A DNA stretch of 64,000 nucleotides from Candidatus Peribacteria bacterium (GTDB lineage: Bacteria > Patescibacteriota > Gracilibacteria > Peribacterales > Peribacteraceae): positions 11,910-75,909 of the forward strand of contig CALREJ010000002.1 in the NCBI GenBank assembly GCA_943355155.1, written 5' to 3'. The stretch's first letter is position 1; every line of letters starts with the position of its first letter. A program made the translations under genes and the position numbers. Shown here in pieces: positions 10,740 to 45,353 of the stretch. The notes beneath the pieces were generated by a model, which was not told the origin of the DNA, made no database searches, and worked only from the letters and a program-made list of their open reading frames with translations.

Positions 10740-10772
10740 CAATTTCTCTTTCTTCAACGAACGTATCTGCAT

Positions 10773-11660: not shown

Positions 11661-12260
11661 TTATATTTCTTTTTGTGCACGAACAAGACTAACTATTGCC
11701 TCATTTTTTTTCATAGTTATTTCTGGGAAAGAATCAATTGTCATCGCTCGCCCTTGCAGTGGATTGAGGATTCTAGTTTTCCCATCCTCGTCTGTTTCAG
11801 GAACAGGTTCATAAAAAAGATGGTCTTTCTTTTTTCGAATGCATGTTGGCAATGCCAATAGACCTCTATAAAGATCTTGATGTGTTTCATAATCGGGTAT
11901 GCGCTCAAGTGATAAGAGACAAATGTGCAAAAGTCGTCTTTTTCTAATTACAAGTGATCCAACTGCACCATCTGCAAATTCCAATGTGGGAACTGCACAA
12001 ATTGCAATATCAGCATCAAATAAAAACCCATCGATGTAGCTGTAATCACCTTCATTTGGTAATAATATTTTTTTCTTACTTTTTGGTAATGGCCACGCAA
12101 TTTCTTTACAACTACTCCCCGAACCTTTTTTTTGAAATTCAGAATTCAGTGCCGCAACAAACTTTGATGAAAAACATCGCAATTTTTGATTAATAGTTCT
12201 TCGGTCAGTATCTACCCCAGCTATCTCACGGTGGTATACGTTTATAGATATTTTTTCCAT
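11661..12260 (-). CDS. Hypothetical protein in a visibly AT-rich islet
   Basis: Long ORF with ATG at 12258-12260 (MEKISINVYH...); the tracked start at 12296 is TTG. No motif recognised. Its base composition differs clearly from the flanking nadK and prmC. Confidence 0.55.
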   Translation of the reverse strand: MEKISINVYHREIAGVDTDRRTINQKLRCFSSKFVAALNSEFQKKGSGSSCKEIAWPLPKSKKKILLPNEGDYSYIDGFLFDADIAICAVPTLEFADGAVGSLVIRKRRLLHICLLSLERIPDYETHQDLYRGLLALPTCIRKKKDHLFYEPVPETDEDGKTRILNPLQGRAMTIDSFPEITMKKNEAIVSLVRAQKEI

Positions 12261-12292
12261 GGAGTGTACTTCTATTCTTTTCTTAGAAGGAG

Positions 12293-14185: not shown

Positions 14186-15652
14186 TTAACTTTCAATCGA
14201 AACGGTGGTGGATGTTGGAGAAGAAAGAACTGCAGGAGCAGTCACATCCGTAATTTCAACCGTAAATGTTTTTCCGGGTGAGTCTGCTTTGTTTGCGATC
14301 GGGATGACAATCACTTTACTTGCTTCACCGGGGAGGAACGTCAGCGTTCCCGAAGTGTAGGTAAATGCGGTTCCTGCCGCTGCAGTGCCATTCGTCGTTG
14401 CGTAGTTGACGGAAACGGTTCCGACGGTTCCTCCTGTGCGAAGCACAGTCACGCCGACCGTGCCCGCTGACTTGCTCACGGAATAGACATTTTTTACAAA
14501 TTTGAGCGTTCCGGAATCAAACGTGCCGGATTCATCGTCAAAGAGAGTTACCGTTGCGCCCGCAGCACCCAGACTTGCTCCTCCGGTGACGGTGCCGAGA
14601 ATAATATTGAAACTCTTATTTCCAGTGATATTGGAATTTGCGATGACCGGAATCGAAAAAGTTTTGGTCGTCTCGCCCGCATTGAATGTCAGCGTGCCAG
14701 TCACCGTTGTGTAATCCGATCCGGACGTTGCTGTGCCATTGCTTGTTCCGTAGTTTACTCCGACAACACCCGTGCTTCCTCCCGCCCGCGCGACGGTGAT
14801 TACGATCGATCCGGCTTTTTCATTGACCATGTACGTTGCGGCATTCAAACCAAGTGTTCCCGCAGGGTTAGCGGATGAGCTGCTCGAAGCCGTACCTGTC
14901 GACGATGTACTTGATGCCTGCACTGTCTGGTTATCGGTGATCGTCACTGTCGCAACTCCGGGGTTAGCAAGTTTTTGGCTGCCGACCGGATTACTCAGCG
15001 TGATCGTGAAATTCTTGTTGCCTTGTGCGATGGGATTATTGCTGACGCTGATAGAGAACGTTTTGCTTGTTTCGTTCGTCAGGAGCGTCAGAGTGCCTTT
15101 CGTTGTCGTGTAATCAGTTCCATTCACAGCCGTGCCATCTGTCGTTGCGTAGTCGACACTCACCGTTCCCTTCGCTCCTCCCGTTCGTGTGACGCCGATT
15201 TTTACTGACCCTGCACTTTCCGCCACAACGTACTCCTTTTGTGTTAGACGCACCCCGTACGAGCTATACGACATCGTGCTCGAACTGCTGCTCACCGATG
15301 ATGAGCTCGACGAAGAAGCACTGCTGACGGACGAAGTGCTGCTCCTTGAAGAACTTTGCACGACGTTGCCATTTACCACTTCCGTGCGAAATCGATCAAG
15401 CATCACTGCAAGTTGTCCGCGTGTTACGTAGTCATTCGGACCAAATGTCCGGCTGTTATATCCTTTGATCACGCCGAGGCTGTACATGGTGCCAACAGCA
15501 CTGTCATAAAATGAACCGCTTTGCACATCGGAAAAAATCGATGAGCCAAGTATTGTGGACGCAATACCCGTGGTTGCCGCTCCGGCAAATGCACCCACGA
15601 GAAATGCAGCAGAAATAAGTGTACGAGTTGCTCTCTGTTTCAAGAAAGACAT
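14186..15652 (-). CDS. Secreted surface protein: signal peptide + SLH domain + Ser-rich linker + three Calx-beta-like modules
   Basis: The N-terminus has a hydrophobic leader. FSDVQSGSFYDSAVGTMYSLGVIKGY...VTRGQLAVMLDRF is SLH-like. Three modules of about 105 aa repeat GTVSVDYATTDGTAVNGTDYTTTKGTLTL..ETSKTFSI. Confidence 0.8.
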   Translation of the reverse strand: MSFLKQRATRTLISAAFLVGAFAGAATTGIASTILGSSIFSDVQSGSFYDSAVGTMYSLGVIKGYNSRTFGPNDYVTRGQLAVMLDRFRTEVVNGNVVQSSSRSSTSSVSSASSSSSSSVSSSSSTMSYSSYGVRLTQKEYVVAESAGSVKIGVTRTGGAKGTVSVDYATTDGTAVNGTDYTTTKGTLTLLTNETSKTFSISVSNNPIAQGNKNFTITLSNPVGSQKLANPGVATVTITDNQTVQASSTSSTGTASSSSSANPAGTLGLNAATYMVNEKAGSIVITVARAGGSTGVVGVNYGTSNGTATSGSDYTTVTGTLTFNAGETTKTFSIPVIANSNITGNKSFNIILGTVTGGASLGAAGATVTLFDDESGTFDSGTLKFVKNVYSVSKSAGTVGVTVLRTGGTVGTVSVNYATTNGTAAAGTAFTYTSGTLTFLPGEASKVIVIPIANKADSPGKTFTVEITDVTAPAVLSSPTSTTVSIES

Positions 15653-16860: not shown

Positions 16861-17199
16861 ATGCTCAGAGATCTTCTTGAAAACGGAAGTATTATCGACA
16901 TTGTCGCGACCTTTATCGCACTTGCCCTCATCGTCGCCTCCATTCTTTGTCTTGTCTTTATTATTATCGGCGGTATTAGTTTCATTCTCTCCGCCGGCAA
17001 TGAAGAAAAAATCAAGAAAGCCGTTCACACGATCCGCTATGCAATCATCGGACTTATCGTCACCTTCGTAGCGTTCTTCGCAGTGTCTTGGATCAGCAAA
17101 CTTCTCGATATCCCCTTCAACCTCGATTTCACGACGATCGTCAACCTGATGCAGGAGATCTTCCAGTCGCTGGGAAGTACATCGAGTAGTGCGCAGTGA
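16861..17199 (+). CDS. Small two-helix membrane protein, TrbC/VirB2 (T4SS pilin)-like (tentative)
   Basis: Two hydrophobic helices flank SAGNEEKIKKAVHTIRYAI, a layout typical of the small pilin-like proteins common in CPR genomes. Confidence 0.5.
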   Translation: MLRDLLENGSIIDIVATFIALALIVASILCLVFIIIGGISFILSAGNEEKIKKAVHTIRYAIIGLIVTFVAFFAVSWISKLLDIPFNLDFTTIVNLMQEIFQSLGSTSSSAQ

Positions 17200-23617: not shown

Positions 23618-25174
23618 GTGAACATGAACGAACACCCAGACGACATTCGAGCGACGCGCTACGTGATTTACGTTCGCAAATCTACCGACGACCCGCAGAA
23701 GCAGGTACGCTCGATTGACGATCAGATTGCCGAGTGCAAACAGCTTGCGAAGCAAAAAGACCTTCCCATCGTCGGAACCGTCATACAGGACAATCTCTCG
23801 GCAAAGAAACCGAACCGCCGCCCGAAGTTCAAACAGATGATCGAAGCCATCGAACGGGGCGACATCAACGGCATCATCGCGTGGCATCCTGACCGCCTCG
23901 CTCGAAACATGATGGAAGGCGGCCAGATTATCCAGTTGATCGACGACGGCAAGCTCCTCGACTTGAAGTTCGTCTCGTTCCCGTTCACGAACGATGCGAA
24001 CGGCAAGATGATGCTCGGCATCAGCTTCGCGCTCTCGAAGCACTACTCCGACAAGCTCTCGGCTGACGTGCGACGTGGCAACATGAACGCGCTGAAAGAG
24101 GGAAAATCAAGTGGCTCCTATAAGGCGGGGTACATTCGTGATAATGAGACAGGTTTCTACCACCCCGAACCTGTGAATTTTGCCATCATGCAAAAGGCGT
24201 GGCAGATGAGGCTCGACGGTGCACGGGAGAACAAGATTGTTACTGATATGAACGCGGATGGATACAGGCGCATCTTGAAGGGTAAAACAGTGCGACAGCG
24301 TAGGGAACAGCCAATGACCGCTCCGAAACTCAATGTGTACTTCACAGACCCGATCTACTACGGGGTACTGGAACAGCGCGATCAATCCATCGATCTCACC
24401 GAACTCTACGAGTTTGAGACGATGGTGACGAAGGAAGAATGGGACAGAGTGGGACGCATGAAACGAAGTCATGGCAAAGAGAAGGTGAAGTATGATTTTC
24501 CGTTCCGCGACATTGTCTACTGCGCCGAGTGCAAGGAACCCCGTGCCATCGGCGCGTCGAGAGGGAAGGGCAAGAAGCAGCGCAGGAAAATCTACTACCG
24601 TTGCGACACGCCCGACTGCAAGGAGTACGGCAAGAGCGTCCGCGGCCTCGTCGTCACCGAGGCAATTTCCGAACTTGTGCGCAGCATCAACGTCGATCAG
24701 ATCGACAAAGCGGAGTTGGAGAAGGCACTGAATGCCTACGTCGCCGCGTCGCAGAAGGGCATAACCGTGCAACTCAAAGACCTGAAAACGAAGCGTACGA
24801 AGGTCGAAACAGAGTTGAAGGACATGACGAAGCGGAAGATCAAACAGACCTTCACGAAGGACGAACAAGCCGCCTACGAGGAAGAAACCGAGCGGCTACG
24901 GAAACTGATCGGCGGGTACAAGGAGAAAATTGACCCGTTGGAGGCGATGAAGCTCTTTTCGACTGTCGATGTCGAAGGGTTCTTGAACACCCTGAAAACG
25001 GCTTCGCAAGACTACGATGAGGTCACGCACGACGTGAAGGATACGATTGCGAAGATGCTCGTCTTGAACACCTACGTCGCAAAGAGGAAAGTGGCTTCCA
25101 TCAAACTCAAACCTCCCTTCGACGAGATAATTTTACACCCTCTTGTCCAGAATGGTGGAGCTGACGGGATTTGA
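23618..25174 (+). CDS. Large serine recombinase (resolvase catalytic domain + recombinase domain + zinc ribbon + coiled coil)
   Basis: YVIYVRKSTDD...SIDDQ (catalytic Ser region), GIIAWHPDRLARN, the Cys cluster CAECKEP...YYRCDTPDC, and a K/E-rich helical tail. Confidence 0.9.
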   Translation: MNMNEHPDDIRATRYVIYVRKSTDDPQKQVRSIDDQIAECKQLAKQKDLPIVGTVIQDNLSAKKPNRRPKFKQMIEAIERGDINGIIAWHPDRLARNMMEGGQIIQLIDDGKLLDLKFVSFPFTNDANGKMMLGISFALSKHYSDKLSADVRRGNMNALKEGKSSGSYKAGYIRDNETGFYHPEPVNFAIMQKAWQMRLDGARENKIVTDMNADGYRRILKGKTVRQRREQPMTAPKLNVYFTDPIYYGVLEQRDQSIDLTELYEFETMVTKEEWDRVGRMKRSHGKEKVKYDFPFRDIVYCAECKEPRAIGASRGKGKKQRRKIYYRCDTPDCKEYGKSVRGLVVTEAISELVRSINVDQIDKAELEKALNAYVAASQKGITVQLKDLKTKRTKVETELKDMTKRKIKQTFTKDEQAAYEEETERLRKLIGGYKEKIDPLEAMKLFSTVDVEGFLNTLKTASQDYDEVTHDVKDTIAKMLVLNTYVAKRKVASIKLKPPFDEIILHPLVQNGGADGI

Positions 25175-25242
25175 ACCCGCGATGGAGGTAGTGCCTCGGC
25201 GGATTATCAGACCGCTCCCTTCGGCCGCTTGGATACAGCCCC
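25153..25242 (-). tRNA. Class II (long variable arm) tRNA; a manual fold gives the atypical anticodon GAU
   Basis: Sense strand: GGGGCTG TA TCC AAGCGGCCGAA GGG A GCGGT CTGATAA TCCGC C-GAGG-CACTA-CCTC-CATC GCGGG TTCAAAT CCCGT CAGCTCC A CCA. The architecture resembles bacterial tRNA-Ser or tRNA-Tyr. Confidence 0.7.
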
Positions 25243-32315: not shown

Positions 32316-34658
32316 TTATAAAATCTCCCTCATCATCCTTAGCTGCTCTTCACTGACAATCTTCAAAAGCACTTCATCACTCTTTGTCCTGATCACATCA
32401 ACCGATCCAAACTCTTTGAGTAATTTCTGCTTCGTCTCTGTCCCAAGTCCGGGAATCCGATCGAGCTGCGACTCCACCGCGTGTTTGAGCGCGCGTTTTT
32501 CACGGTGACGATTTGCGAAGCGATGGGCTTCGTCGCGGATGCGCATGAGGAGGAATTTAGCGGGGCTGTCCTTCGGCAAGACGATCGATACTTTCTGTTC
32601 CGGCAAAAACACTTCCTCTTCTCTCTTTGCGAGTCCGATGACGGGAATCTGTAATTGAAACTCCTTGAGCACAGCTACAACCGTACTGAGCTGACCTTTG
32701 CCACCGTCGATGACGAGGAGATTTGGAAATGCAGTGAGCGACGAATCTATTTTGTTCTGTAGAATGTTATACATCATCACGATGCGCCCTCCCTCAGGAA
32801 AATACGGGTCATTCGCCTTCGCATTTTCTATTTCTTTCTGAAGGATGGCAGGAGGAATTTTGGTATACCGAAATCCGAGTTGTGCATAATATTCCTCAAG
32901 TTGTGGATGAATCGTAATATAAACTTTTCCTTTTTTAGCTTTTGCAAGGAGCTTGCGAATAATGGCGTGACCAAGTTTGTTGCCTCGAACATGTTCACTC
33001 ACCCAAACAGATTGTATTAAATGAATGTTGCCAGAGCGTTTTGCAAGACGTCCAAATCCCAAAATATCTTCACCTTTTCTGGCAACGACAAATTCCTGAT
33101 AAGAAAGCTCGCCTGCGAATGTCTGCTCATTGCTACGAAGAGTGTCTTCGATAAAATTTTTGTCGGCTTTTTTTGCTTTTTCAAATACGACCCCCGAATC
33201 ATTCCACAGTTCCTCATGGCTTTTTAAGTAACGTAGACGTCTCACCAAGACTTCGCGAAGGGATTTATAATCATTCACTTCTCCATCTTTAATTGTACGC
33301 ATTGTGAAGCTGCGATAGTCATCGTTTTTTGGCCTACCATTCACACACACAACCATGCTGCCGACTGTTTCCGTGCCACCGGTATGGGAAATATCGTAAC
33401 ACTCGATCCTCTTCGGAATCGCCGGAAGCTTGAGAGCGGCCATGAGTTCATCGAGAGCATTTTTCACATTCCTCTCCTCCGCTTCCCAACTTGCCTCTGC
33501 TTGCTTCGCTTTTTCTTCGGCGTTTTTTTGTGCGAGGTCGAGAAGTTGTGATTTATTGCCGCGCTCTGGGATCGCGATCGAGACTTTTCGTACGTGTCTT
33601 TCGGAGAGTAGTTCTGCGAGAGCATCGTGACTTTGGAAATCTTCCTGAACTAAAATCGTATCGGGAAGCTCCACCACTCCTTCATAATATTGCGGCAAAA
33701 ATTGTTCGAGCACATCTGCAATGCTTTCCGCCTTTCCCATGAGCGGCAGATGATGTTCACCGATCAGTTTTCCGCCGCGTTTCAGGAGCACCTCGACATG
33801 TGCTTTCCCCGAAAGAAGCGCGATGCCGACTGCATCGGTATTGTCACCGGAGGTATCAGACACAATCTGTTTTTTCTCCATGTCTTCAATAAACTTGAGT
33901 GCGTCACGAATGCGTGAGGCCTTTTCAAATTTGCGTTCTGCTGCGTATTTTGCCATCAATTCCCTCCCCTGCGTGAGCACAGGTTTATAATCCCCACGCA
34001 AAAACTTCATCACCTGATCGACCCGCGATCGGTATTCCTCCTGCGTCATCGTGCCACAACAAAGACCGTTGCACTGACCGATTTGGGAATCGAGACATGG
34101 CTTGAGTTTGCCGGTGTTGAAAATACTTTCCCGTGGCTCGCCGGACTCACCATCAAAAGCTTTATTGAGTGCATCGATCGACTGTCTGCACGCCCTCCAC
34201 CCAAAAAATTCATGGAGCATGTCGAGGATCCGCTTCGTTTCAAAATTACTCAGGTACGGACCAAAATACTTGGCAGAGTTATGCTCAAGCTGGCGTGTGA
34301 TTTCAATTTTTGGATACGCATCCGCAACTGAGATCCGCACGTACACATAATTTTTATCATCCTTCATCAGCACGTTATATTTCGGCCTCATTTCTTTTAT
34401 AAGGTTAGTCTCGAGGATCAGTGCTTCAACTTCGGTGCGTGTGATCGTGACATCGAAATCCGCAAGTTGCCTCAGCATCGATTGCTTCCACGGACCCTGA
34501 CCTTTTTCTGCCGTCGCTGCGACGTAACTCTTGAGTCTATTCTTCAGATTCTTCGCTTTCCCGACGTAAATCACCACTCCCGCTTCATCAAGCCAACGAT
34601 AGACGCCGGGCGCGGTGGGAGCCTTGAGGACACGTTTTCGGAGTGAAGCGAGAGACAT
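32316..34658 (-). CDS. uvrC: Excinuclease ABC subunit UvrC with an inserted GNAT acetyltransferase-like domain
   Basis: GIY-YIG region GVYRWLD...YVGKAKNLKNRLKSY; Cys cluster CLDSQIGQCNGLCCG; UVR region; YDISHTGG; VIDGGKGQL; C-terminal HhH IPGLG. It is 780 aa where about 600 is usual. Confidence 0.9.
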   Translation of the reverse strand: MSLASLRKRVLKAPTAPGVYRWLDEAGVVIYVGKAKNLKNRLKSYVAATAEKGQGPWKQSMLRQLADFDVTITRTEVEALILETNLIKEMRPKYNVLMKDDKNYVYVRISVADAYPKIEITRQLEHNSAKYFGPYLSNFETKRILDMLHEFFGWRACRQSIDALNKAFDGESGEPRESIFNTGKLKPCLDSQIGQCNGLCCGTMTQEEYRSRVDQVMKFLRGDYKPVLTQGRELMAKYAAERKFEKASRIRDALKFIEDMEKKQIVSDTSGDNTDAVGIALLSGKAHVEVLLKRGGKLIGEHHLPLMGKAESIADVLEQFLPQYYEGVVELPDTILVQEDFQSHDALAELLSERHVRKVSIAIPERGNKSQLLDLAQKNAEEKAKQAEASWEAEERNVKNALDELMAALKLPAIPKRIECYDISHTGGTETVGSMVVCVNGRPKNDDYRSFTMRTIKDGEVNDYKSLREVLVRRLRYLKSHEELWNDSGVVFEKAKKADKNFIEDTLRSNEQTFAGELSYQEFVVARKGEDILGFGRLAKRSGNIHLIQSVWVSEHVRGNKLGHAIIRKLLAKAKKGKVYITIHPQLEEYYAQLGFRYTKIPPAILQKEIENAKANDPYFPEGGRIVMMYNILQNKIDSSLTAFPNLLVIDGGKGQLSTVVAVLKEFQLQIPVIGLAKREEEVFLPEQKVSIVLPKDSPAKFLLMRIRDEAHRFANRHREKRALKHAVESQLDRIPGLGTETKQKLLKEFGSVDVIRTKSDEVLLKIVSEEQLRMMREIL

Positions 34659-35767: not shown

Positions 35768-36442
35768 ATGTCAGACATGATCACCCTTGCAGCAACGGCT
35801 CGCTCCAAAGATATGCGCGCAAATGCCCTCCGCAGAAGCGGACAGGTTCCTGCTGTTGTCTACGGAAATGAACAACAAGAGCACTTGCAGCTGGAAGAGG
35901 TTGCCTTGAAAAAGGCGTACACAAAGGCCGGTGAAAGTACGCTTGTGGAGCTCGATCTTGGCTCAAAGAAGCTTCCCGTACTCTTTCACGATGTCGATTA
36001 CGATCCCGTAAGTGACCGCATGATCCACGTCGATTTCTACGCTGTGAACATGAAGAAAGAGGTGGAGGCTGAAGTGCACATTCGTTTCGAAGGTGAATCC
36101 CCTGCTGTCAAAGAAGGCGCTGTTCTCGTGTCTGCTCTTCACGTCGTGACAGTAAAAGCTCTGCCTGCAAACTTGCCACACGACCTAGTACTCGATATCA
36201 GCACGCTCTCTGAAATGGGTGGCACCCTTACTGTTGCAAACCTACTAATTCCAAATGGTGTCACAATTGTGGATGCACCGGAATCTGTGATTGTCGTTGC
36301 TCAGGAACCCCGCGCTGAAGAAGTCGTGGAAGCACCGGTCGCAGCAGTCGAAGGTGCCGTTGCAGCTGATGGTACAGCCGTTCCCGCGGCTGAAGGTGCT
36401 GCTGCTCCTGCTGCCGCAGAAGGAAAGAAGGAGAAGGAATAA
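35768..36442 (+). CDS. rplY: 50S ribosomal protein L25 (Ctc form)
   Basis: ANALRRSGQVPAVVYG...VLFHDVDYDPVSDRMIHVDFYAV, with an Ala-rich C-terminal tail. Confidence 0.85.
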   Translation: MSDMITLAATARSKDMRANALRRSGQVPAVVYGNEQQEHLQLEEVALKKAYTKAGESTLVELDLGSKKLPVLFHDVDYDPVSDRMIHVDFYAVNMKKEVEAEVHIRFEGESPAVKEGAVLVSALHVVTVKALPANLPHDLVLDISTLSEMGGTLTVANLLIPNGVTIVDAPESVIVVAQEPRAEEVVEAPVAAVEGAVAADGTAVPAAEGAAAPAAAEGKKEKE

Positions 36443-36498: not shown

Positions 36499-36846
36499 CT
36501 ACACCGCCAAAGATCTCGATCGCTGGGCTTTTCCTTTGGAGCTGTTCATTTCTTTATATTTCATCAGCTGCGGCTCCATTTTTTCTACAGCCCGATCAAA
36601 TGCTTCGATCACCGCTTGTTTCCTTGATTCTGCTCGAAATTGCTTCTTCGGGAGCTCCACTGTGATCATCACCTTCACTTCATCCTGCGCTTTTTTGGTA
36701 TCACGACGCTCGGCCTCGACCCGTATCACGGACGCTTCGTCTTTCAAACGACTGCAGTGCGTAGCCAATTTCCCGATTTTTTTGGCCACAATCATCAGTT
36801 CCTTGTCGCTGTAGCGCAGACCTTTCTCAAAATGTTCGATATGCAT
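36499..36846 (-). CDS. hpf: Ribosome hibernation promoting factor (short HPF/RaiA)
   Basis: MHIEHFEKGLRYSDKELMIVAKKIGKL...VKVMITVELPKKQFRAESRKQAVIEAFDRAVEKMEPQL. Confidence 0.8.
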   Translation of the reverse strand: MHIEHFEKGLRYSDKELMIVAKKIGKLATHCSRLKDEASVIRVEAERRDTKKAQDEVKVMITVELPKKQFRAESRKQAVIEAFDRAVEKMEPQLMKYKEMNSSKGKAQRSRSLAV

Positions 36847-36949
36847 GGTGGTATGTGGGGGAAAACTTGATGAGTGTAGCACACCACAGCAAGGCCAGTG
36901 AAAGATACCCAAAGAACCAATAGCACAACTTTTATGATTTCATCATCTC

Positions 36950-36978
36950 TGGCAAAAAAAGTAGTTTTGTGGTATCAT
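36950..36978 (+). promoter_or_regulatory. Candidate promoter for the 37005-43399 operon (TGGCAA-17 nt-TATCAT with upstream TGG)
   Basis: Hexamers read at 36950-36955 and 36973-36978, 26 nt upstream of the ATG at 37005. Confidence 0.35.
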
Positions 36979-37004
36979 AAAGAGAAACCAATACCAAACT
37001 TCCT

Positions 37005-38186
37005 ATGCCTGAGAATCTCGAACAAGTAACAAAGCAACTTCAGCAAATGCGGGAAGGAACGACTGAATTTACTGAGCGCCAAGTTAATAAAGCACAAGAG
37101 GAATTTACGAAAGGAAAAAGATTGGTCTTAGAATCAACCGATAATGCACTCCAAAGTTTTCGACAGGAAATGGTTTTATGGAAAGAGCTCGCAGAAGAAC
37201 AAATTGCAAAAGGAAAAAGTGAATTAGGAAAATTACTACCTACCATTGAGGACATTCAAACAAGATGGGACAGAATGCTTCAGCCCATTAATAATGCGGC
37301 AGAAAGCGCACAAGTAAAAGCAGGAGAAGCAATCGAAAGCTCAGGGTTTGGAAAATTCATTGATACAGTAAGTACATGGGCAAATAAAATATGGGATGGA
37401 CTCAAGCCGCATCTTGCAAAAATTGCAAAACTGCCCGGCCTCAGTTGGATCATCGGACCTGAATACGCAAAAATGCTCGAAGCGTCGGTTTCAAACGACA
37501 TCGAAACGGAAAAATTATTTGAAGAAATCAACAAGCGCGTTAATGCAACAGAAGTTGCATTCGTCGGCAATGTGAATGATAGCTTGAACCTGACCTCATT
37601 CAACGATTCCTTTGAAAAATTAAAAACGGTGAAAGGCACCACGTACACAAAAACCAATCTATTCATCGAACTGAAAGACAATGAAGGGTTGATGGATACT
37701 CTTCCGGTACAAAATGGAAAGAAAATACTGACGATGAAGGAAATCGCAGAGGCAGCTGCAACCTATGCAAAGAAAGCCGTGGCGACCTTGCCGGTAAAGC
37801 CACCAGAGAAAAAGGAGATCAAGCCTGTAACACTGACTGAGAGTGGTGGAAAAATTACTGCCGTGTGCGAAGGGAAAACATTGATAATTAGTTTACAACC
37901 CAATGGTACTCTCGACGTAACTGGCAAGGGAACGTGGCAGATAATTGGAAACAACATGCCTCTCATTATCCATACACTTGGAAAAGGAGATCCTGATCCG
38001 TTGATTGGCAGCGTAAAAAACCCAAAGAAATTACTCAATCCTTTTGCAAAAGATGAACCAGAACTGATTTCCTTTTCACTAACCAAGGAGCAAGTTTTTG
38101 AAGTATTTGAAAAAATAGATAAAGCGGAAAATTACAGATTCAAAGATAAAGAGGGGCATGAAATGGAATTCAAAAAAATCGGCTAA
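37005..38186 (+). CDS. Unknown protein 1 of 4: coiled-coil-like N-terminal half, beta-rich C-terminal half
   Basis: 393-aa ORF. The N-terminus is K/E/Q-rich and helical. There is no signal peptide and no recognisable motif. Confidence 0.75.
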   Translation: MPENLEQVTKQLQQMREGTTEFTERQVNKAQEEFTKGKRLVLESTDNALQSFRQEMVLWKELAEEQIAKGKSELGKLLPTIEDIQTRWDRMLQPINNAAESAQVKAGEAIESSGFGKFIDTVSTWANKIWDGLKPHLAKIAKLPGLSWIIGPEYAKMLEASVSNDIETEKLFEEINKRVNATEVAFVGNVNDSLNLTSFNDSFEKLKTVKGTTYTKTNLFIELKDNEGLMDTLPVQNGKKILTMKEIAEAAATYAKKAVATLPVKPPEKKEIKPVTLTESGGKITAVCEGKTLIISLQPNGTLDVTGKGTWQIIGNNMPLIIHTLGKGDPDPLIGSVKNPKKLLNPFAKDEPELISFSLTKEQVFEVFEKIDKAENYRFKDKEGHEMEFKKIG

Positions 38187-38213
38187 TTTCTCATCAGACA
38201 CACATCAACCTCC

Positions 38214-38660
38214 ATGACCGATCCAAACACAATCACCGAGCCACACTCCTTAGAATCACCCGAGCGTGCAGCGCTGCAGCCGCATGTACGGGAATTTCTT
38301 GAGCTCTCGGAAGCATTGGACCAAGAAATAAAAAAGGATGACGACATTGCGATCAAACAGATTGAAACCAAATTACGTGTGTTTTATGGAACACTCGAAG
38401 CAGAAAAGCAGCAGGACATCATGCATTTTTTGCAACAACAGAATGCTGCAATCCGCATTGAAAATGAACGCGGAACTATTAGCAAAGCTATTCATCAGAC
38501 AATGGATTGGACAGAAAGAGCAGTGCACGAAACCGGTGCAGTCGTAGCTATCGCATCCGCGGGAATCGTACATCTCGGATTATCCTTTGTCGGTGGAGTC
38601 GCTGGTGGCGTAAGAAGCGGTGCGAAAGCAATAAAACGTTCCTGGCTGAACGCAGCATAA
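38214..38660 (+). CDS. Unknown protein 2 of 4: tail-anchored small protein
   Basis: 148 aa. The N-terminus is acidic and helical. A single C-terminal hydrophobic segment reads AVVAIASAGIVHLGLSFVGGVAGGV. Confidence 0.7.
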   Translation: MTDPNTITEPHSLESPERAALQPHVREFLELSEALDQEIKKDDDIAIKQIETKLRVFYGTLEAEKQQDIMHFLQQQNAAIRIENERGTISKAIHQTMDWTERAVHETGAVVAIASAGIVHLGLSFVGGVAGGVRSGAKAIKRSWLNAA

Positions 38661-38670
38661 CGAAAAAACT

Positions 38671-41600
38671 ATGTTCCTCCCCACACACCATCACCGCTCC
38701 CCCACTCCTTCATTCAAAGAAGGACGATTGATATATGAAAATGAAGGAGCTGATGCAGCTGAGCTTTCAAAAAAGCCGGATACACCACCTAGTTCTCCAT
38801 CATCTGAAGCGGAAGAAGTAGCGAGAATGCTTCAAAATACTGATACAAATTTGGATCAGTTGCAAGATGCGATTCAAAGGGGAAGGGTGCAAACAAAAGC
38901 CGATCAGCAGCCATTTTTGGAATCAGTAGCACAGTCGCTGCGGGGGGAGAAAGATCGAAAAAGTATTTCTCAAAAATTAGAGGCTCTTGAAAAAAAGGCA
39001 CATGAAAGAAAAAATTTGGGTGCACTGAAAAGTACGATTGAAATGGTGCGAGGTAAAGTGGATCAGGATTCCCCTGCCGGTGCCGATACGCAAAATCCGG
39101 ATGCAAAAGAACCATCGGCCCCTGAACAAAAAACGCTCCTCACAAAAATCGGCGATACCGCCGAAGTGATTGGAGGAAAGTTGCCGGGAACAGATAACTT
39201 GAGTAGAAACCAAAAGATCGCACTCGGATCCATCGCCACGCTCGGCGTTGGTGTGCTCGCGTGGTACGGAATCAAAAAGTTATTTGGCTGGGGAAAGAAA
39301 TCCTACGAAGAAGGCAAAGAAGCAGCCACGCACTCAAGCGGCGGATTTTTCAAAAAACTGTTGATTGGACTTGGGATTGGGGGGGCGGCGTTCCTTGGTC
39401 TGCACTTTGCTGTGAAACACTATAAAAAGGAGATTGAAAAATCCATTCAAGGGATGATTCCTAATTTTAGTCTTCCTCCAGGAGGCGGAATTCTTCCAGC
39501 TTCTGTAGCACCAATAGTCGATGGCGCTGCGGCAGGTGCAGAGAGAGGATGGGCAGAAGGAAAAGAGATATTCGGCGATGCGTTCAGTGCCATGGTGAAC
39601 CATGAAAACACAGAAAAAGTCCTGTCTGAGAAAAATTCATACAGTTCAGATACAGAATTTGCCGGTGCTCTTCTTTGGGCAGTGGTAAAAGATGGTGGTG
39701 ATTTTATTTGGGATGAAGGTCGTGTTGCACTCGTCGCAGGCGGAAGACTATTCGCTTTGACCGGCAAATTTGGAGAACAGGCATGGGATTACCTCATCGA
39801 TAGAAATATAACACCGGAAACGACGGGTGACTTAGTTGCAACATATATCGCAGGCACCATGGTGTATGCGTCATCACTCGCAGCGCTCAAACTCGTCACG
39901 ATCAATAAATTTGGCAAGAATGCGAACGTCCTGTGGGAAGCTGGTTTGTGGCCATGGTACACAGTCAAAAGAACTGCAAAGAGTGGCTACGCTTTGGTGC
40001 GTGGAGGTGTTGAAATTTTTGATAGTGAAAGCGCGACTCGTCTCACGATCAGTCGAATGGATGCAACATTTAGTAGAAGAACTCGCCTCATTCCCGGTCG
40101 CAAACTACGAGGTGCTACAGCAGATGGATTATTTGTACGTTATGAATTTGCACAGGAGCAAAATAGATTACTTGATAAAGCAAAACTCAATCCAATGATT
40201 AAAAATAATAAAGATGCATTTACTCTCTTTGAAAAAAATACAGATCTAGCAGTGGATGAATTCCATCGCTATTTAAAAGGAATGAAAGAAGCAGATATGC
40301 CCAAAGAATTTTTACAAGCTTTGAAAGATGTAACGTATGAAAAAGATGTTTCAAAGCTAACAAGAGAAGAGGTAAAGAAAGTGCTTATTAAAATGAGTGG
40401 AAAAACGCCAACGACACCATCTGTCGATCCACCAGAGAGCGGTATCGGCGGAAGTAGATCTGCTCAAAATTCCAAACCTGCTGAATCTGATGCAGATGCT
40501 ACGGAAGGAGGAAAGAAACAAAAAAATGTCTTACCCGACGAAGAGCCAAGATTAAAAATCGATCCTGAGGAAAGTACCAGCGGAAAAACGTCATCGACTC
40601 CAACTGAAGAATCCCCCACTGCAAGCAAAACAAAAACATCGACACCAGAATCCGACTCAGCCGCACCAAAGAACGATACATCGGATGCAGACACTGGAGG
40701 TAGAAAAGTGGATATCGAAACAGGAGAAAAGACAATCGAAGTAAAAAATGCAACAAGAAATTCCGAGTCAGTCGATCGTATTTTGAATGACAAGGAAGTT
40801 GCAAAAGCACTGAAAGGCAGTACAAACAGTGCTGAAGCCAGAGCCGCACTACAAGCCGAACTTGGAACGCTCGACGCCGCAGAATTGCACCTGATCGAAA
40901 ATAGTCCGGCAGCAAAGAAGATTTTTGCGGGAGCCGTGAGCAGTGGTTCCGCAGAAATTGCAGAAGCCGGAGCGGCGGCCAAGAGCGCAGCAAAAAGTGC
41001 ACTAAAAGGCCGCATTATCGGTAATGGATTTGGTATGGCTGTAGACGTCTTTGGACTAATTATGACCAAATCCTACTGGGATGAAGCCACACTCAAATTG
41101 AAAGCAACGGACAACCCCGAACTAAAGAAAATTTACGAATCAGACCGCAACTACATCCTAGTCGATGCGGCTGGAAATGCGGCTGGAATTATGATTGGTG
41201 GGTACGCAATGGTCACAACGTACATGTCGACGGGAAGTATTCTCGTATCACTCGGCGCACCGGCAGGAATGATTATGGCACCGATAGGACTCGGTATTGC
41301 GGCAATGCAATACGCCCGCGGCAAGGCAAGTGAATCAGCAGAATATCATGCGACCAACGAGCGCGATTTGACGAAGAAATACTCACCCGGAAAGGTGCTG
41401 GAACACATCAAAAAAACGAGTGGCGGTGATAGTCTCAACTGGGCACAGGATGCATTTTTGCCTGCAGACACAGCACGTCTCGCGAACAACGCATCACGTG
41501 AAGACGGCTACCGTGCGTACTTTGCACAAGTTGCGACGGCACGTGTATCTCCTCTGCCCATTCCTTTGCTCTACAGTGACAGAAGTGAACAGCAGCTTGA

Positions 41601-42798
41601 GGGACTACAGAAGCAGCGTCTTGGCCAATTCATCCTCTATGCTGAAACATATATTTTGAATGCAACAGAAGGAACATGTGATTTGGTATCGGACAGAATC
41701 CTGAAGAATGCCACAACGTACGCAGAAATGCAGATGGAAAAGTACGATGCGTATCTGCAAGATCCTGATGAGACAAAACGCCCGAAGCTACTCGTGTGGA
41801 ACTATGGAAGAGCACAGACCGCAGAATATGTAAGTGCGTGGCGCACTATCAGAAGAGATGTGGCTGATCGCGAATTGGAATCAGTGAAAGATGTGGCTCT
41901 CGTCATGGAGAGTATGCAGCAAGATCCTGATTCGTTCGCTGAACGTTTCCCCAAGGTGCTCCTTGAAAATATACGCCACGAACTGGCCACATGTGATCAA
42001 AAACTCATCACCGCAGATTACAGCCAGTGGTTAAGTCTAGATGCGTGGAAAGCACCCGGCATGGGCAGTGAACTCGATCTACAAAACATCGCACGTGGAC
42101 AAGCGGCACAGGAACTCTGGAACATCCTCGCAACCGTTGCACAAACAAAAACACCGATGACATCAGAATCTGTCCATCGGCAGATTCAGCAGCTGCGGAC
42201 AGTGCTAATGCAAAGTCCTGAAGTATTGGCACACAAAGGAGTGAATACGAAAAATGCACGCTCCTTGCGTGACATCGGCAGCAATCCGACACGACTGAGC
42301 GTTACAGGAATGCTGGATATGATCGATCAGCACCAGTTCAGCAAGCCAACATCGCTCGGCTCAAGTGAACAGGTGGCACTGAATGCAACGAACGTGATGA
42401 ATCACTACGCAACTAATGTACAAAATCACATGCCTGTCGAGCTACGACTGAGGAAAGGCGCAGAAAAGGGATACATGAAGCTTGATGGAACATGGTGGAT
42501 GCGTACAGCCGGCAAGCGCAGATGCACACGGGTTGGAAAGGATGATGAAACGACCGTCGTTTCACTGGAAAAAGGAAATCTCTACCAATTCTATAAACAC
42601 ACCACCATGACGAGACAGTACACGCGCGGCCCTCGGGGAGGTTCTGATCTCATTGAAACGGTGGATAACATTCCTGAAAAACCAGCGGATCTGGAAATTT
42701 TTGTCGAAGCCGAGGAACAATCAACCGTCTCTCCTCTGCCAAAATCAACAAATCCATCGCCGAGCGCACAGGGAAAACCAACCGAACAAGCTGCATAA
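38671..42798 (+). CDS. Unknown protein 3 of 4: 1375-aa multi-pass membrane protein
   Basis: An uninterrupted 4.1 kb ORF with several hydrophobic hairpins, a long S/T/P/E/K-rich linker and a large C-terminal region. No motif recognised. Confidence 0.85.
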   Translation: MFLPTHHHRSPTPSFKEGRLIYENEGADAAELSKKPDTPPSSPSSEAEEVARMLQNTDTNLDQLQDAIQRGRVQTKADQQPFLESVAQSLRGEKDRKSISQKLEALEKKAHERKNLGALKSTIEMVRGKVDQDSPAGADTQNPDAKEPSAPEQKTLLTKIGDTAEVIGGKLPGTDNLSRNQKIALGSIATLGVGVLAWYGIKKLFGWGKKSYEEGKEAATHSSGGFFKKLLIGLGIGGAAFLGLHFAVKHYKKEIEKSIQGMIPNFSLPPGGGILPASVAPIVDGAAAGAERGWAEGKEIFGDAFSAMVNHENTEKVLSEKNSYSSDTEFAGALLWAVVKDGGDFIWDEGRVALVAGGRLFALTGKFGEQAWDYLIDRNITPETTGDLVATYIAGTMVYASSLAALKLVTINKFGKNANVLWEAGLWPWYTVKRTAKSGYALVRGGVEIFDSESATRLTISRMDATFSRRTRLIPGRKLRGATADGLFVRYEFAQEQNRLLDKAKLNPMIKNNKDAFTLFEKNTDLAVDEFHRYLKGMKEADMPKEFLQALKDVTYEKDVSKLTREEVKKVLIKMSGKTPTTPSVDPPESGIGGSRSAQNSKPAESDADATEGGKKQKNVLPDEEPRLKIDPEESTSGKTSSTPTEESPTASKTKTSTPESDSAAPKNDTSDADTGGRKVDIETGEKTIEVKNATRNSESVDRILNDKEVAKALKGSTNSAEARAALQAELGTLDAAELHLIENSPAAKKIFAGAVSSGSAEIAEAGAAAKSAAKSALKGRIIGNGFGMAVDVFGLIMTKSYWDEATLKLKATDNPELKKIYESDRNYILVDAAGNAAGIMIGGYAMVTTYMSTGSILVSLGAPAGMIMAPIGLGIAAMQYARGKASESAEYHATNERDLTKKYSPGKVLEHIKKTSGGDSLNWAQDAFLPADTARLANNASREDGYRAYFAQVATARVSPLPIPLLYSDRSEQQLEGLQKQRLGQFILYAETYILNATEGTCDLVSDRILKNATTYAEMQMEKYDAYLQDPDETKRPKLLVWNYGRAQTAEYVSAWRTIRRDVADRELESVKDVALVMESMQQDPDSFAERFPKVLLENIRHELATCDQKLITADYSQWLSLDAWKAPGMGSELDLQNIARGQAAQELWNILATVAQTKTPMTSESVHRQIQQLRTVLMQSPEVLAHKGVNTKNARSLRDIGSNPTRLSVTGMLDMIDQHQFSKPTSLGSSEQVALNATNVMNHYATNVQNHMPVELRLRKGAEKGYMKLDGTWWMRTAGKRRCTRVGKDDETTVVSLEKGNLYQFYKHTTMTRQYTRGPRGGSDLIETVDNIPEKPADLEIFVEAEEQSTVSPLPKSTNPSPSAQGKPTEQAA

Positions 42799-42802
42799 TC
42801 GT

Positions 42803-43399
42803 ATGACGCACTCCCCTCACAACTCACCGGCACCAAAGAAAAATCTCCGCTCCGCCATCGCGAAGCTGCAGACATTCTTTGGCGTGAAAAAGAAAACAAA
42901 AACACCTTCGCCTGTCGCGGAAAGACACAAGGAAAGAATCATCGAGACACCAAAAGTCGAAGTCTCCGAGAAAAAAGAAGTACCGGCAGTGGAAGAAGTG
43001 AAAGAGGAAATCGACGTCGCGGACGTGATGGAAGAAATTCCGCACACACATCTCCACCTCCTACAATATTTTCCTGCAAAACAAAACCTCCTCAACGGAG
43101 CGCCGATCACTATTACACTGGATAATGCACCTCACATCATCGCCTTCCGTGCAGAATCCATCATCCTTGACAGCATCAGCTACGCACTTCTGCAGAATGA
43201 CGATCCACTCGACGTGCAGAATGTGATGATCAAAGAATCAACACTCACGATGTCACTGGAATCCACCAATCGCCATCACAAAGTACTCTCACTCGCATTC
43301 AGCGATGATACATTGCAGACCGCCCTCAAAGAATTACTCAAGCGCGGCACGACGATCGTACATACAGAAAACACCAGCATTACGATCAGCCGCTTCTAA
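42803..43399 (+). CDS. Unknown protein 4 of 4 (198 aa)
   Basis: ATG lies 4 nt after the stop of the giant ORF. The N-terminus is K/E-rich and the C-terminus beta-rich. Confidence 0.65.
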   Translation: MTHSPHNSPAPKKNLRSAIAKLQTFFGVKKKTKTPSPVAERHKERIIETPKVEVSEKKEVPAVEEVKEEIDVADVMEEIPHTHLHLLQYFPAKQNLLNGAPITITLDNAPHIIAFRAESIILDSISYALLQNDDPLDVQNVMIKESTLTMSLESTNRHHKVLSLAFSDDTLQTALKELLKRGTTIVHTENTSITISRF

Positions 43400-43451: not shown

Positions 43452-43862
43452 ATGTACCTCCTCGCACAATACCCGTTCCTCATCCCGCTCATGGTGATGG
43501 TGATGTCGGAAATGATGAAGGCGGTGGTGGAGCATTTCAGAACCGGATCATGGCACGCGACACTCTTCCAGCCTGGTGGTATGCCAAGCAGCCACTCTGC
43601 ATTTGTGACGTCTCTACTCATCATCGTCGCACATGTCGAAGGATTGGAATCCCTCGAATTCGCTATCGCCTTTGTCTTCGCCTGTGTCGTCTGGTACGAC
43701 GCCATGAGCCTGCGTCGCAGTGTCGGCCAGCAAGCAGAGGCACTGAATAAGCTGCAGCACTGGCAACATTTCTCTGAACGCGTCGGACATTCATTGAAAG
43801 AAGTGATCGCGGGGATCTGTTTCGGGGCGGTGGTGACGCAAGTGGGGTTTTGGGTGAGTTGA
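43452..43862 (+). CDS. DUF212 (YuiD-like, acid phosphatase/vanadium haloperoxidase-related) membrane protein
   Basis: GGMPSSHSAFVTSL...WYDAMSLRRSVGQQAEALNKL. Confidence 0.7.
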   Translation: MYLLAQYPFLIPLMVMVMSEMMKAVVEHFRTGSWHATLFQPGGMPSSHSAFVTSLLIIVAHVEGLESLEFAIAFVFACVVWYDAMSLRRSVGQQAEALNKLQHWQHFSERVGHSLKEVIAGICFGAVVTQVGFWVS

Positions 43863-43916: not shown

Positions 43917-45353
43917 ATGGCTCGTCTTGCTGATCAAAAAAAGGACTTTCCCCAGTGGTACCTCGATGTTATCGCGGCGGCGGATTTGGCGGAAAACGCT
44001 GAAGTGCGTGGCTGCATTATTTTCAAACCCTATGGCTATGCACTCTGGGAAGCGATCCAGCAAGAACTCAATCGCCGGATCAAAGCATTAGGCGTCCAAA
44101 ACGTCTATTTCCCCATGTTCATCCCCGAATCAATGATTGCGAAAGAGAAAGATCACGTCGAAGGATTTGCGCCCGAGTGTGCGGTCGTCACGCACGGAGG
44201 CGGAAAAGAACTCGCGGAAAAGTTATACATTCGTCCCACGAGCGAGACTGTCTTCTATTCCGCATTTGCAAAATGGATTCAGAGTTACAGAGATCTGCCG
44301 ATGAAACTGAATCAATGGGCAAACGTTGTCCGGTGGGAAATGCGCACGCGTCCGTTTTTGCGGACACTGGAATTCCTCTGGCAAGAAGGACACACCGCAC
44401 ATGCAACACGCGAAGATGCGGAGAAAATGGTCAATGATGCGCTCAAAATGTACATCGACTTCGATCATGACTTCCTCGCTCTGCCTGTGATGCAAGGAAA
44501 AAAACCTCGGCACGAAACCTTCGCCGGAGCAGAATATACTCTGTCGACAGAGGCACTCGCCCGCGATGGAAAAGCAATCCAAGCCGGAACTTCGCATTAC
44601 ATCGGCAACACGTTTGCCACTGCCTATGGGGTCAAATTCCTCGATGCTGATGGAACGCAGAAGCCGGCATTCACCACGAGCTGGGGGCTTTCCACGCGCA
44701 TCATCGGTACGATGATCGTCGTGCACGGCGACGAGAAAGGCCTGAGAGTTCCGCCTAACGTCGCACCGATTCAGGTGGTGATTGTTCCGATTTATAAGAC
44801 CGATGAAGAGCGCGACGCTGTGATGAAAGCTGTGCACTCTCTGCACACAATGCTCACAGATGGAAACATCCGCAGTCACCTCGACGACCGCGACGAAAAA
44901 TCCCCCGGATTCAAGTTCAACGAATGGGAAGTGAAAGGTGTTCCTGTTCGTATTGAGATCGGACCCAAAGATCTCGCGAAAGATCAACTGACGATTGCGA
45001 GGCGTGATACCGGCGCGAAAGAAGCGATGACACTGAAAGATTGTACGGCAGCATCTGTTCACACTTTGCTTGCGGAGATCCAACAGAATTTGCTCGATCA
45101 AGCGAAGAAACATTTGGAAGAAAACACGCACTGGGTGGAAACCTTCGACAAGCTCAAAGAAATTATCAACAGTGACAACGGCGGAATGGTGTGGGCACCG
45201 TGGGATGGGACACTGGAAACTGCAAACAAAATCAAAGATGAAGTGAAAGCAACGATCCGTCTGCTCGGTGATACTACAGAAGCGAAGGGGAAAATGGATG
45301 TGTGTTCCGGCAAGCCTGCAACGGAGATGGCTCTCTACGCCAAGGCATATTAA
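43917..45353 (+). CDS. proS: Prolyl-tRNA synthetase, archaeal/eukaryotic-like short type
   Basis: FPQWYLDVI...RGCIIFKPYGYALWE, RPTSET, NVVRWEMRTRPFLRTLEFLWQEGHTAH, and C-terminal ...ALYAKAY. Confidence 0.93.
   Translation: MARLADQKKDFPQWYLDVIAAADLAENAEVRGCIIFKPYGYALWEAIQQELNRRIKALGVQNVYFPMFIPESMIAKEKDHVEGFAPECAVVTHGGGKELAEKLYIRPTSETVFYSAFAKWIQSYRDLPMKLNQWANVVRWEMRTRPFLRTLEFLWQEGHTAHATREDAEKMVNDALKMYIDFDHDFLALPVMQGKKPRHETFAGAEYTLSTEALARDGKAIQAGTSHYIGNTFATAYGVKFLDADGTQKPAFTTSWGLSTRIIGTMIVVHGDEKGLRVPPNVAPIQVVIVPIYKTDEERDAVMKAVHSLHTMLTDGNIRSHLDDRDEKSPGFKFNEWEVKGVPVRIEIGPKDLAKDQLTIARRDTGAKEAMTLKDCTAASVHTLLAEIQQNLLDQAKKHLEENTHWVETFDKLKEIINSDNGGMVWAPWDGTLETANKIKDEVKATIRLLGDTTEAKGKMDVCSGKPATEMALYAKAY

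Follow-up and report, generated by a model that had tools for sequence, protein, structure and literature searches.

The described systems that come closest to the one considered here are of several kinds. The Rickettsiales RvhB6/VirB6-like giants and the Gram-positive ConG/TcpH-type subunits are large polytopic proteins with long soluble extensions, and their genes often occur as tandem, fast-diverging paralogues. The chlamydial Inc proteins are lineage-specific and fast-evolving, have no signal peptide, and carry, as their main defining feature, a bilobed hydrophobic hairpin with helical or coiled-coil stretches on either side. In the lcrH-yopB-yopD (type III secretion) and virE1-virE2 operons, which combine a chaperone with a hydrophobic translocator, the gene for a small acidic helical protein lies directly upstream of that for a large protein with hydrophobic hairpins, while the P1 adhesin operon of Mycoplasma pneumoniae is a compact operon of a contact-dependent organism with a reduced genome, and it encodes large, lineage-restricted membrane proteins that have no homologues elsewhere. 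Here, we describe a module of four open reading frames (ORF1 to ORF4), the third of which encodes a protein of 1375 amino acids (aa) termed the giant, in a stretch of 64,000 nucleotides (nt) of a Candidatus Peribacteria bacterium (GCA_943355155.1, contig CALREJ010000002.1, positions 11,910-75,909 of the forward strand), which is referred to below as the window.

The four genes are a real, conserved, and fast-evolving module of the Peribacterales that occupies a fixed slot in the chromosome, and ORF3 is a modular, polytopic protein. The original prediction, made from the sequence of the window alone, reported four same-strand ORFs of 393, 148, 1375, and 198 aa separated by 27, 10, and 4 nt (ORF1/ORF2, ORF2/ORF3, and ORF3/ORF4, respectively), and these coordinates hold; the genes look like a single transcription unit, as it proposed, and the lineage that it left unnamed when it spoke of a lineage-specific assembly is the Peribacterales of the Candidate Phyla Radiation (CPR), the Peribacteria being very small and probably symbiotic. 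The module spans 6.4 kb, or ~0.5% of a genome of ~1.3 Mb (the size of one complete relative). In what follows, L-numbers denote the relative loci that were fetched and P-numbers (P0001-P0149) the proteins of the family.

The Four Proteins Are Outside the Described Families

By every sequence and structure comparison made, the four proteins are outside all described families. With the Pfam-A, NCBIfam, PADLOC, and PHROGs hidden Markov models (HMMs), all four proteins were far below the cut-offs (best E of at least 0.0037), and comparisons with the PDB sequences by phmmer and hmmsearch, using both single sequences and profiles of the ORF1, ORF2, ORF4, and giant families, gave best E values of 0.0097-0.05 over short stretches. 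This agrees with the failure of the original prediction to place any of the four in a named family. Of the longest relatives, 25 that were examined have no Pfam family in common, the lone match being the Decapeptide-repeat family PF25296 in 2 of the 25, and seven other giants from the same slot contain zero Pfam domains. Neither trafficking nor toxin domains of the Rhs/CdiA/LXG-type polymorphic toxins were matched in Pfam, NCBIfam, or PADLOC. The Peribacteria genome paper does not mention the ORF3 family (PMC4736985), and a keyword search of the literature found no published description of it. At least four uncurated families can be defined from the module, comprising the N-module and C-module of the giant (see below) and the ORF1, ORF2, and ORF4 families. 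Orphan families are common in CPR genomes.

Two other readings were examined and rejected. One was a phage or mobile origin, with the giant as a tape-measure-like protein: there was no PHROG match, the ORF3 family is absent from IMG/VR contigs and GenBank phages, and the best Foldseek match among the viral models of BFVD had an E of 0.069. The other was a diversity-generating retroelement target, for which neither a template/variable repeat pair at 36-44 kb nor a reverse transcriptase among the scanned ORFs of the window was found. The bAvd genes occur in L087 and L089 only.

ORF3, a Modular Membrane Protein

ORF3 is encoded on the + strand at 38671-42798, as are the parts of it given here. 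Its N-terminus is a conserved peptide, MxLPxHxYRS...RLxFE, after which comes a helical region (both within aa 1-181; 38671-39213), and the protein continues with a first Gly/Ala-rich hydrophobic hairpin (aa 182-248; 39214-39414) that is made up of two ~20-aa segments (aa 182-202 and 229-248) and a K/R-rich loop. Together, these form the N-module (aa ~1-250), which recurs in ~80 family representatives and which also occurs alone, in proteins of 200-600 aa encoded in the same slot in L007, L010-L012, L015, L019, L020, L023, L024, and L046. The first hairpin is a bilobed hydrophobic domain conserved across ~110 aligned sequences, with a family mean Kyte-Doolittle (KD) hydropathy of 1.15-1.19 and a net charge of +2.9 in the loop.

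The middle domain (aa 249-600; 39415-40470) is well conserved in ~35 representatives, most strongly in the closest homologues, and other inserts take its place in most of the wider family. Next comes a low-complexity linker rich in S, T, P, E, and K (aa 601-745; 40471-40905), which is real in that homologues do not align there. In P0017 (L089, 7001-12196) and P0009, long proline-rich linkers with PPLP/PPPLP repeats are found in its place.

The C-module (aa ~746-1225), which is present in ~95 representatives, consists of a conserved membrane core (aa 746-885; 40906-41325) and an all-alpha domain of ~320-330 aa (aa 886-1225; 41326-42345). The core is arranged as an amphipathic helix, a hydrophobic helix (aa 781-803) carrying D792, the motif T813-x-N815-xx-L818-xxx-Y822, and a second hydrophobic hairpin (aa 835-885) with a conserved APxG turn; in ORF3, this turn is 863-APAG-866, and the conserved proline is P871, at the start of the next helix. 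The paired hydrophobic hairpins and the linker, both of which the original prediction described, could be located. The best-conserved columns of the family are G788, D792 (90%), F794, G795, I810, T813 (88%), N815 (96%), L818, Y822, P871 (92%), and D899, and they sit in and around one hydrophobic helix, in the polar stretch after it, and in the turn of the second hairpin. Judging from these alignments, the strongest constraint on ORF3 is on a trio of hydrophobic helices with polar conserved residues rather than on a soluble domain. In the remainder of ORF3 (aa 1226-1375; 42346-42798), a domain rich in beta structure (aa ~1226-1345) precedes a tail that is rich in S, T, and P and ends in ...TEQAA. 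The beta domain is found in a subset of the family, and jackhmmer with the tail gives 18 matches, all of which are within the family.

An AlphaFold model of aa 740-1375, based on 60 family members, has a predicted local distance difference test score (pLDDT) of 83.6 and a predicted template modelling score (pTM) of 0.81, with 397 residues at a pLDDT of at least 90. It contains three long helices (fragment residues 48-73, 77-113, and 126-155), the all-alpha domain (pLDDT mostly >90), and a beta domain of ~100 residues, with strands at fragment residues 517-607. When this model was compared by Foldseek with the PDB and with BFVD, nothing was found at E<=0.001 (best E of 0.27, with a template modelling (TM) score of at most 0.15, in the former and the above-mentioned 0.069 in the latter), so it is with respect to solved structures and viral models that the fold is new. 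An ExbB/MotA-like stator was also considered and had no Foldseek support. The model of aa 170-620, which was based on five sequences, is all-helical but unreliable (pLDDT of 44.5) and was left out of the fold search.

The ORF3 family comprises at least 146 clusters at 50% identity. At 90% clustering, ORF3 has only 4 relatives among 5.8 billion proteins, and the 146 clusters emerged when a profile was run against 1.84 billion representatives at 50% identity; for 124 of them, the E value is <=1e-10, and for 68, it is <=1e-30. With few exceptions, members have 1,000-2,400 aa. Those that are named are called 'hypothetical protein' and are assigned to Peribacteria, Peribacteraceae, or Patescibacteria with one exception, a partial member of the cluster of P0010 labelled Candidatus Nanoarchaeia archaeon, which is probably due to misbinning. 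When the GTDB representative genomes were scanned for peptide patterns of ORF3, no relative could be confirmed, the patterns being too strict, since L009, which is derived from GTDB, carries a divergent member. On the basis of these searches, the family is specific to the Peribacterales and fast-evolving.

ORF1, ORF2, and ORF4

ORF1 (37005-38186, + strand, 393 aa) has neither a signal peptide nor a hydrophobic segment; its N-terminal part is rich in K, E, and Q, its C-terminal part is variable, and between them is a conserved motif, LFxxINxR...FxGxVNE...FNDA. The public gene call for ORF1, P0006 (379 aa), begins at the second Met (37047), and the start at 37005 is favoured here because the alignment with homologues keeps residues upstream of 37047. 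A direct search for homologues with the ORF1 sequence returned ORF1 itself only. ORF1 homologues occupy the same position in L001, L003, L004, and L092 and, as detected by jackhmmer, in L009.

ORF2 (38214-38660, + strand, 148 aa) is small, acidic, and helical, and what its family has in common is a Gly-rich motif, GGVxGGxxKG, together with a basic tail that ends in Ala-Ala. Homologues lie directly upstream of the giant in L001, L004, and L092. The acidic helical character ascribed to ORF2 originally is retained, but not the C-terminal hydrophobic anchor, since the corresponding stretch is not hydrophobic in the homologues.

ORF4 (42803-43399, + strand, 198 aa) is read from the ATG at 42803, its mechanical frame opening earlier, at a TTG at 42653, and overlapping ORF3. 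It has a K/E/P-rich N-terminus, no hydrophobic segment, and a conserved C-terminal core, FPxxxNL...VTVxGKxHxIAFRxDxIxIDGxKY...LLxGR. Homologues are downstream of the giant in L001, L003, L009, and L091. The long members of this family, in L001 (386 aa) and L003 (344 aa), have in addition the N-module of the giants, including the hairpin, and ORF4 is, on this comparison, a short form of a family whose longer members carry a helix-plus-hairpin N-module. A resemblance between the tails of ORF1 and ORF4, noticed by eye in the original prediction, was not borne out: BLASTP gave an E of 14, jackhmmer starting from either tail missed the other, and hhalign of the two families gave an E of 0.1 and a probability of 0.6%. 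Nor did jackhmmer support a small beta-domain common to all of the accessory proteins, a resemblance suspected by eye in the present analysis.

Two of the four proteins end in the same way, ORF2 with ...NAA (38652-38657) and ORF3 with ...QAA (42790-42795). An AA ending is found in 30 of 148 giants and in 6 of 7 small proteins whose genes directly precede those of giants, compared with 8 of ~610 (~1.3%) other ORFs of the same loci. Besides the window, the loci showing it are L001, L003, L004, L005, and L088. A C-terminal Ala-Ala is the key determinant of recognition of the ssrA type by ClpXP, and substrates of type IV secretion also use C-terminal signals. The ending could, then, be a putative degron or a secretion or recognition signal.

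Conservation of the Module in Its Slot

The slot is bounded by hpf on one side and DUF212-proS on the other, and a giant occupies it in L001, L003, L004, L005, L009, L088, L089, L091, and L092. The question raised by the original prediction as to whether the genes stay together in relatives can be answered in the affirmative: homologues of ORF1, ORF2, and ORF4 flank those of ORF3 in 5-6 independent relatives, although they are only 22-35% identical. In L001, hpf is followed by members of the ORF1 and ORF2 families (396 and 136 aa), and then come the giant, a 386-aa member of the ORF4 family, and DUF212. L092 has, after hpf, ORF1-family and ORF2-family members of 409 and 138 aa, a giant of 1148 aa, a 289-aa protein, and DUF212. 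L004 has the ORF1 family, the ORF2 family, and the giant, and in L009 the order is hpf, ORF1 family, giant, ORF4 family (199 aa), DUF212, and proS. In L003, hpf is followed by a member of the ORF1 family (299 aa), a small protein, the giant, a 294-aa protein, an ORF4-family member (344 aa), and DUF212, and in L091, it is followed by proteins of 369 and 73 aa, the giant (1226 aa), an ORF4-family member (206 aa), and DUF212. The giant of L001 seems to be split into genes for 218 and 892 aa (9402-10058 and 10001-12679), a split that is an assembly gap and not real because the break coincides with a run of N (XXX in translation) in the scaffold.

In more distant relatives, the same slot contains other partners of similar size, with 388, 356, and 78 aa in L088, 392, 422, 86, and 65 aa in L089, and 399 and ~80 aa in L005, and these have no detectable homology to ORF1, ORF2, or ORF4. 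The giant is without any partner in L087 and is elsewhere in the genome in L002, L090, and L094. It follows from the partner sets of these relatives that the module is real in a subclade and that a giant plus small partners is a wider theme.

The divergence of the module contrasts with that of its surroundings. Identities of the flanking housekeeping genes are 62-82% overall, and when the window is compared with L001 or L003, uvrC, GT2, L25, hpf, DUF212, and the ABC transporter genes reach 65-82%, whereas the values for ORF1 to ORF4 are 22-48% and apply to partial lengths only. Expressed as bits per residue, ORF1 to ORF4 score 0.1-0.36 and the flanking genes 0.8-1.7. On these values, the module is a hypervariable island within conserved synteny.

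Other observations concern the slot itself. In L087, L088, and L089, the region between the giant and DUF212-proS contains genes for the AbiEi/AbiEii toxin-antitoxin, a PD-(D/E)XK (Cas4-like) nuclease, and bAvd-like proteins, which suggests a hotspot for cargo that is variable or of the defence type. In L007, L010, L011, L013, L016, and L024, different Pfam-less giants of 1,000-1,500 aa, sometimes two in tandem, are encoded 0-10 kb upstream of proS, and some of the Pfam-less giants of the slot have only the N-module in common with ORF3.

The Surroundings of the Module

As the original prediction had it, hpf (Ribosomal_S30AE; 36499-36912) is divergent and upstream, and the DUF212 gene (43452-43862) and proS (43917-45353) are downstream. 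L25 is at 35768-36442, and proS encodes a prolyl-tRNA synthetase (ProRS) of the archaeal/eukaryal type that is 67-72% identical to Peribacteria ProRS; all of these neighbours were identified with Pfam. In the closest relatives, L001 (14351-15619), L091 (9895-11163), and L092 (10413-11678), a 421-422-aa class II aminoacyl-tRNA synthetase gene, on the opposite strand, is found downstream of DUF212 in place of proS, and its product is only 25% identical to the ProRS of the window. This latter ProRS is 65-73% identical to proteins from metagenome-assembled genomes named Candidatus Peribacteria, Peribacterales, or Peribacteraceae and ~50% identical to all else, which is why the window is placed in the Peribacterales.

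A promoter-like site was proposed upstream of ORF1, and such a site does exist on the + strand in the divergent intergenic region between hpf and ORF1, at 36949-36978 (CTGGCA-18-TATCAT, with a TG before the -10). However, 10 promoter-like sites were found in the region compared with 8.9 expected from shuffles, and since this frequency equals that of chance, the site is compatible with a promoter without being evidence for one. There is no Shine-Dalgarno-like motif in the 30 nt upstream of any of the four starts (36975-37004, 38184-38213, 38641-38670, and 42773-42802), and no DNA repeats or tandem repeats involve 36-44 kb.

The rest of the window is ordinary chromosome, with genes for DnaB, RecA, GAPDH, CTP synthase, H+-PPase, SecG, MscL, glycosyltransferases, and LytR-CpsA-Psr. 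At 14186-15652 (- strand) is a gene for a surface protein that has a signal peptide, an SLH domain, and three Calx-beta repeats, which are the sole DNA repeat family in the window; the organism, therefore, uses classical signal peptides and SLH anchoring. UvrC (32316-34658, - strand, 780 aa) has a GNAT acetyltransferase domain (aa ~513-599) inserted in its C-terminal RNase H-like endonuclease region, and its homologue in L001 is of similar size (785 aa). A 518-aa serine recombinase with a resolvase domain is encoded at 23618-25174 (+ strand), and the end of its gene overlaps a tRNA gene at 25156-25242 (- strand), an overlap that may be the edge of an integrated element.

A T4SS_pilin protein of 112 aa (Pfam PF18895; 32.2 bits against a cut-off of 26.6) is encoded at 16861-17199 on the + strand, next to rpsP and the gene for a KhpA-like KH protein and ~20 kb from the module. 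The neighbourhood of the giant in L094 (GCA_041661065.1, JBAZVD010000001.1, 7267-16953) is of interest in this respect, since it comprises genes for PG_binding and DPBB_1 proteins, the giant P0014, a VirD4-like coupling protein, and an ORF2-family protein, with a T4SS_pilin gene 5 kb upstream beside the gene for a proline-rich, PKD-like protein of 764 aa, which likewise ends in -AA. This arrangement hints at type IV secretion. Neither the window nor any fetched locus other than L094 contains a coupling protein.

What Might the Module Do?

The reading that we favour, tentatively and as possible rather than probable, is that ORF1 to ORF4 constitute a membrane-embedded envelope or cell-contact complex that is in contact or exchange with other cells. 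ORF3 would be in the cytoplasmic membrane, with its N-terminal half cytoplasmic and its C-terminal alpha/beta domains on the outer face. This orientation, with the N-terminus inside and the C-terminus outside, is suggested by the family-wide net charge, which changes from +2.0 ahead of the third hydrophobic helix to -2.2 beyond the fifth. The conserved membrane core might be a conduit or an energy- or ion-coupled element, with the variable domains giving specificity, and ORF1, ORF2, and ORF4 would be partner subunits or assembly factors that co-evolve with ORF3. The complex might serve at the envelope for host attachment or transfer, possibly with the type IV secretion-like genes of the organism. 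A more elaborate proposal, which we regard as improbable, is that of a contact or transfer machine restricted to the Peribacterales, in which a new membrane-embedded fold, made up of the D792/T-x-N/APxG hairpin trio and the unmatched all-alpha domain, would cooperate with a coupling protein of the VirD4-like type. The subunits would have the Ala-Ala at their C-termini as a common recognition signal, and hypervariable partners and tip domains would set host specificity.

Several points weigh against an envelope complex. None of the four proteins has a signal peptide, although the SLH surface protein of the genome does, and ORF1 and ORF4, being without one, would be cytoplasmic unless exported in an unconventional way. 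The hydrophobic segments of ORF3 are only moderately so (mean KD of 0.9-1.2), and the positive loop of the first hairpin is at odds with a simple N-in topology. Not all relatives have the four-gene set, the more distant ones keeping the giant without homologues of ORF1, ORF2, and ORF4. There is no VirB4 or VirD4 in the 64-kb window, and the link to type IV secretion comes from 1 of ~15 loci. The fast divergence could reflect weak constraint on coiled-coil and disordered proteins rather than an arms race.

Another possibility, though an unlikely one, is that all of the soluble parts are cytoplasmic and the hairpins are monotopic or hairpin anchors, so that the giant and its helical partners form a scaffold on the cytoplasmic face of the membrane that organizes division, shape, or polarity, in the manner of scaffold proteins such as EzrA, TipN, and HubP. 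This would fit with the lack of signal peptides in the four proteins and of hydrophobic segments in ORF1 and ORF4, with hydrophobic elements that are hairpins with short turns, with a largely helical content, with the resemblance of the C-terminal Ala-Ala to the cytoplasmic ClpXP degron, and with a housekeeping genomic context. However, the best-conserved residues are polar or charged and in or beside hydrophobic helices, which is unusual for a mere anchor; the charge bias over the third to fifth helices puts the C-terminal domain opposite the N-terminal half; and core cytoskeletal scaffolds are seldom the most divergent genes of a syntenic block. Somewhat less likely still is a component or substrate of a type IV secretion system (T4SS), with the giant as a VirB6/ConG-like channel subunit or as an effector recognized via its C-terminus by a VirD4-like protein, and with ORF2 as a small acidic chaperone in the style of VirE1/VirE2. 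The gene order in L094, where genes for peptidoglycan (PG)-binding and DPBB_1 proteins precede the giant, those for a VirD4-like type IV coupling protein and an ORF2 homologue follow it, and T4SS_pilin is not far away, speaks for it, as do the T4SS_pilin gene of the window, the conserved C-terminal -AA that the giants and small upstream proteins have in common, and the tandem paralogous giants in L007, L024, and L090. Yet, neither ORF3 nor any of 25 long relatives matches TrbL/VirB6 (PF04610) or another T4SS HMM, none of the T4SS structures in the PDB was matched in the Foldseek search, VirB4 and VirD4 are not near the module in the window or in loci other than L094, and a link at a single locus is of limited value in a compact genome, where chance adjacency is common.

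The two other explanations considered are, in our estimation, very unlikely. According to one of these, ORF3 is a secreted pore-forming or translocon-like effector whose hairpins are buried in a soluble helical bundle until they insert into a target membrane, with ORF2 keeping the protein soluble. The hairpins are indeed moderately hydrophobic and Gly/Ala-rich, with long amphipathic helices alongside, the high pTM (0.81) points to packing of the hydrophobic helices against the alpha domain, the gene for a small acidic protein is just upstream, and divergence is fast. Against this, there is no likeness in fold to colicins, ClyA/Smh, Vip3, or translocators (E of 0.8 for Vip3Bc1; E of 2.3 and TM of 0.07 for SmhB; TM of at most 0.12 for both), no export route was found, the protein is very large for such toxins, and the most conserved residues include a membrane-embedded Asp. 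The other explanation dispenses with a complex altogether: the slot would be a hotspot of poorly constrained lineage-specific genes or defence-island cargo in which the giant alone is conserved and functional. That the partners vary by clade, and that the slot of relatives can hold bAvd, AbiE toxin-antitoxin genes, a nuclease of the PD-(D/E)XK type, or giants that are unrelated and without Pfam domains, would be expected in such a case. On the other hand, in 5-6 loci the ORF1, ORF2, and ORF4 families keep their places around the giant even though identities are as low as 22-35%, an ORF2 homologue stays near the giant even at another chromosomal site (L094), and no match was found with PADLOC, or to the family in viral contigs and phage genomes.

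How CPR/Patescibacteria attach to other cells and take up resources from them is little understood, and the Peribacteria have, to our knowledge, no cultured member. The module is a concrete and testable candidate for an envelope or host interface. As a candidate, it rests on an order-wide presence at a fixed locus, on the ~0.5% of the genome devoted to it, on an evolution faster than that of its neighbours, and on a confidently modelled region of ~500 aa without a structural relative; moreover, the conserved membrane motif is suited to mutagenesis. Were the module to be only a scaffold or weakly constrained filler, its value would be smaller, but the new fold would remain.

Comparison with Known Systems

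The HMM searches with the four proteins and the AlphaFold and Foldseek comparison of the C-terminal part of ORF3, checks of the kind that the original prediction had proposed, point to no characterized system, and the likenesses below are of architecture and gene arrangement. The giant proteins of other ultra-small or predatory lineages such as the Omnitrophota (bioRxiv 10.64898/2026.06.07.730766) are reported to be likewise very long, poorly annotated, and from uncultivated groundwater lineages; they belong to different families and another phylum, with no homology found. The P1 adhesin operon resembles the module in being compact and lineage-restricted, but P1 and P40/P90 have signal sequences, ectodomains in the PDB that were unmatched by Foldseek, and no hairpin architecture. 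The lcrH-yopB-yopD and virE1-virE2 operons have the same arrangement of a small acidic protein gene before a large one as ORF2 and ORF3, without similarity in sequence or fold, and ORF2 has no TPR signature.

The bilobed hydrophobic domain that characterizes the Inc proteins has its equivalent in aa 182-202 and 229-248 of ORF3. The Inc proteins are, however, small to mid-size substrates of type III secretion located in the membrane of the host vacuole, whereas the giants have 1,000-2,400 aa and a second conserved hydrophobic core with polar invariant residues; no type III secretion genes were seen among the scanned ORFs of the window.

With respect to the RvhB6/VirB6-like and ConG/TcpH-type proteins, ORF3 differs in having no TrbL/VirB6 HMM or structural match, no VirB4 nearby, and a slot among housekeeping genes. 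It is like them in being large and polytopic with long soluble extensions, its family is like them in its fast divergence and in the tandem paralogues found at some loci, and the member of its family in L094 adjoins a VirD4-like protein and is near PG-binding proteins.

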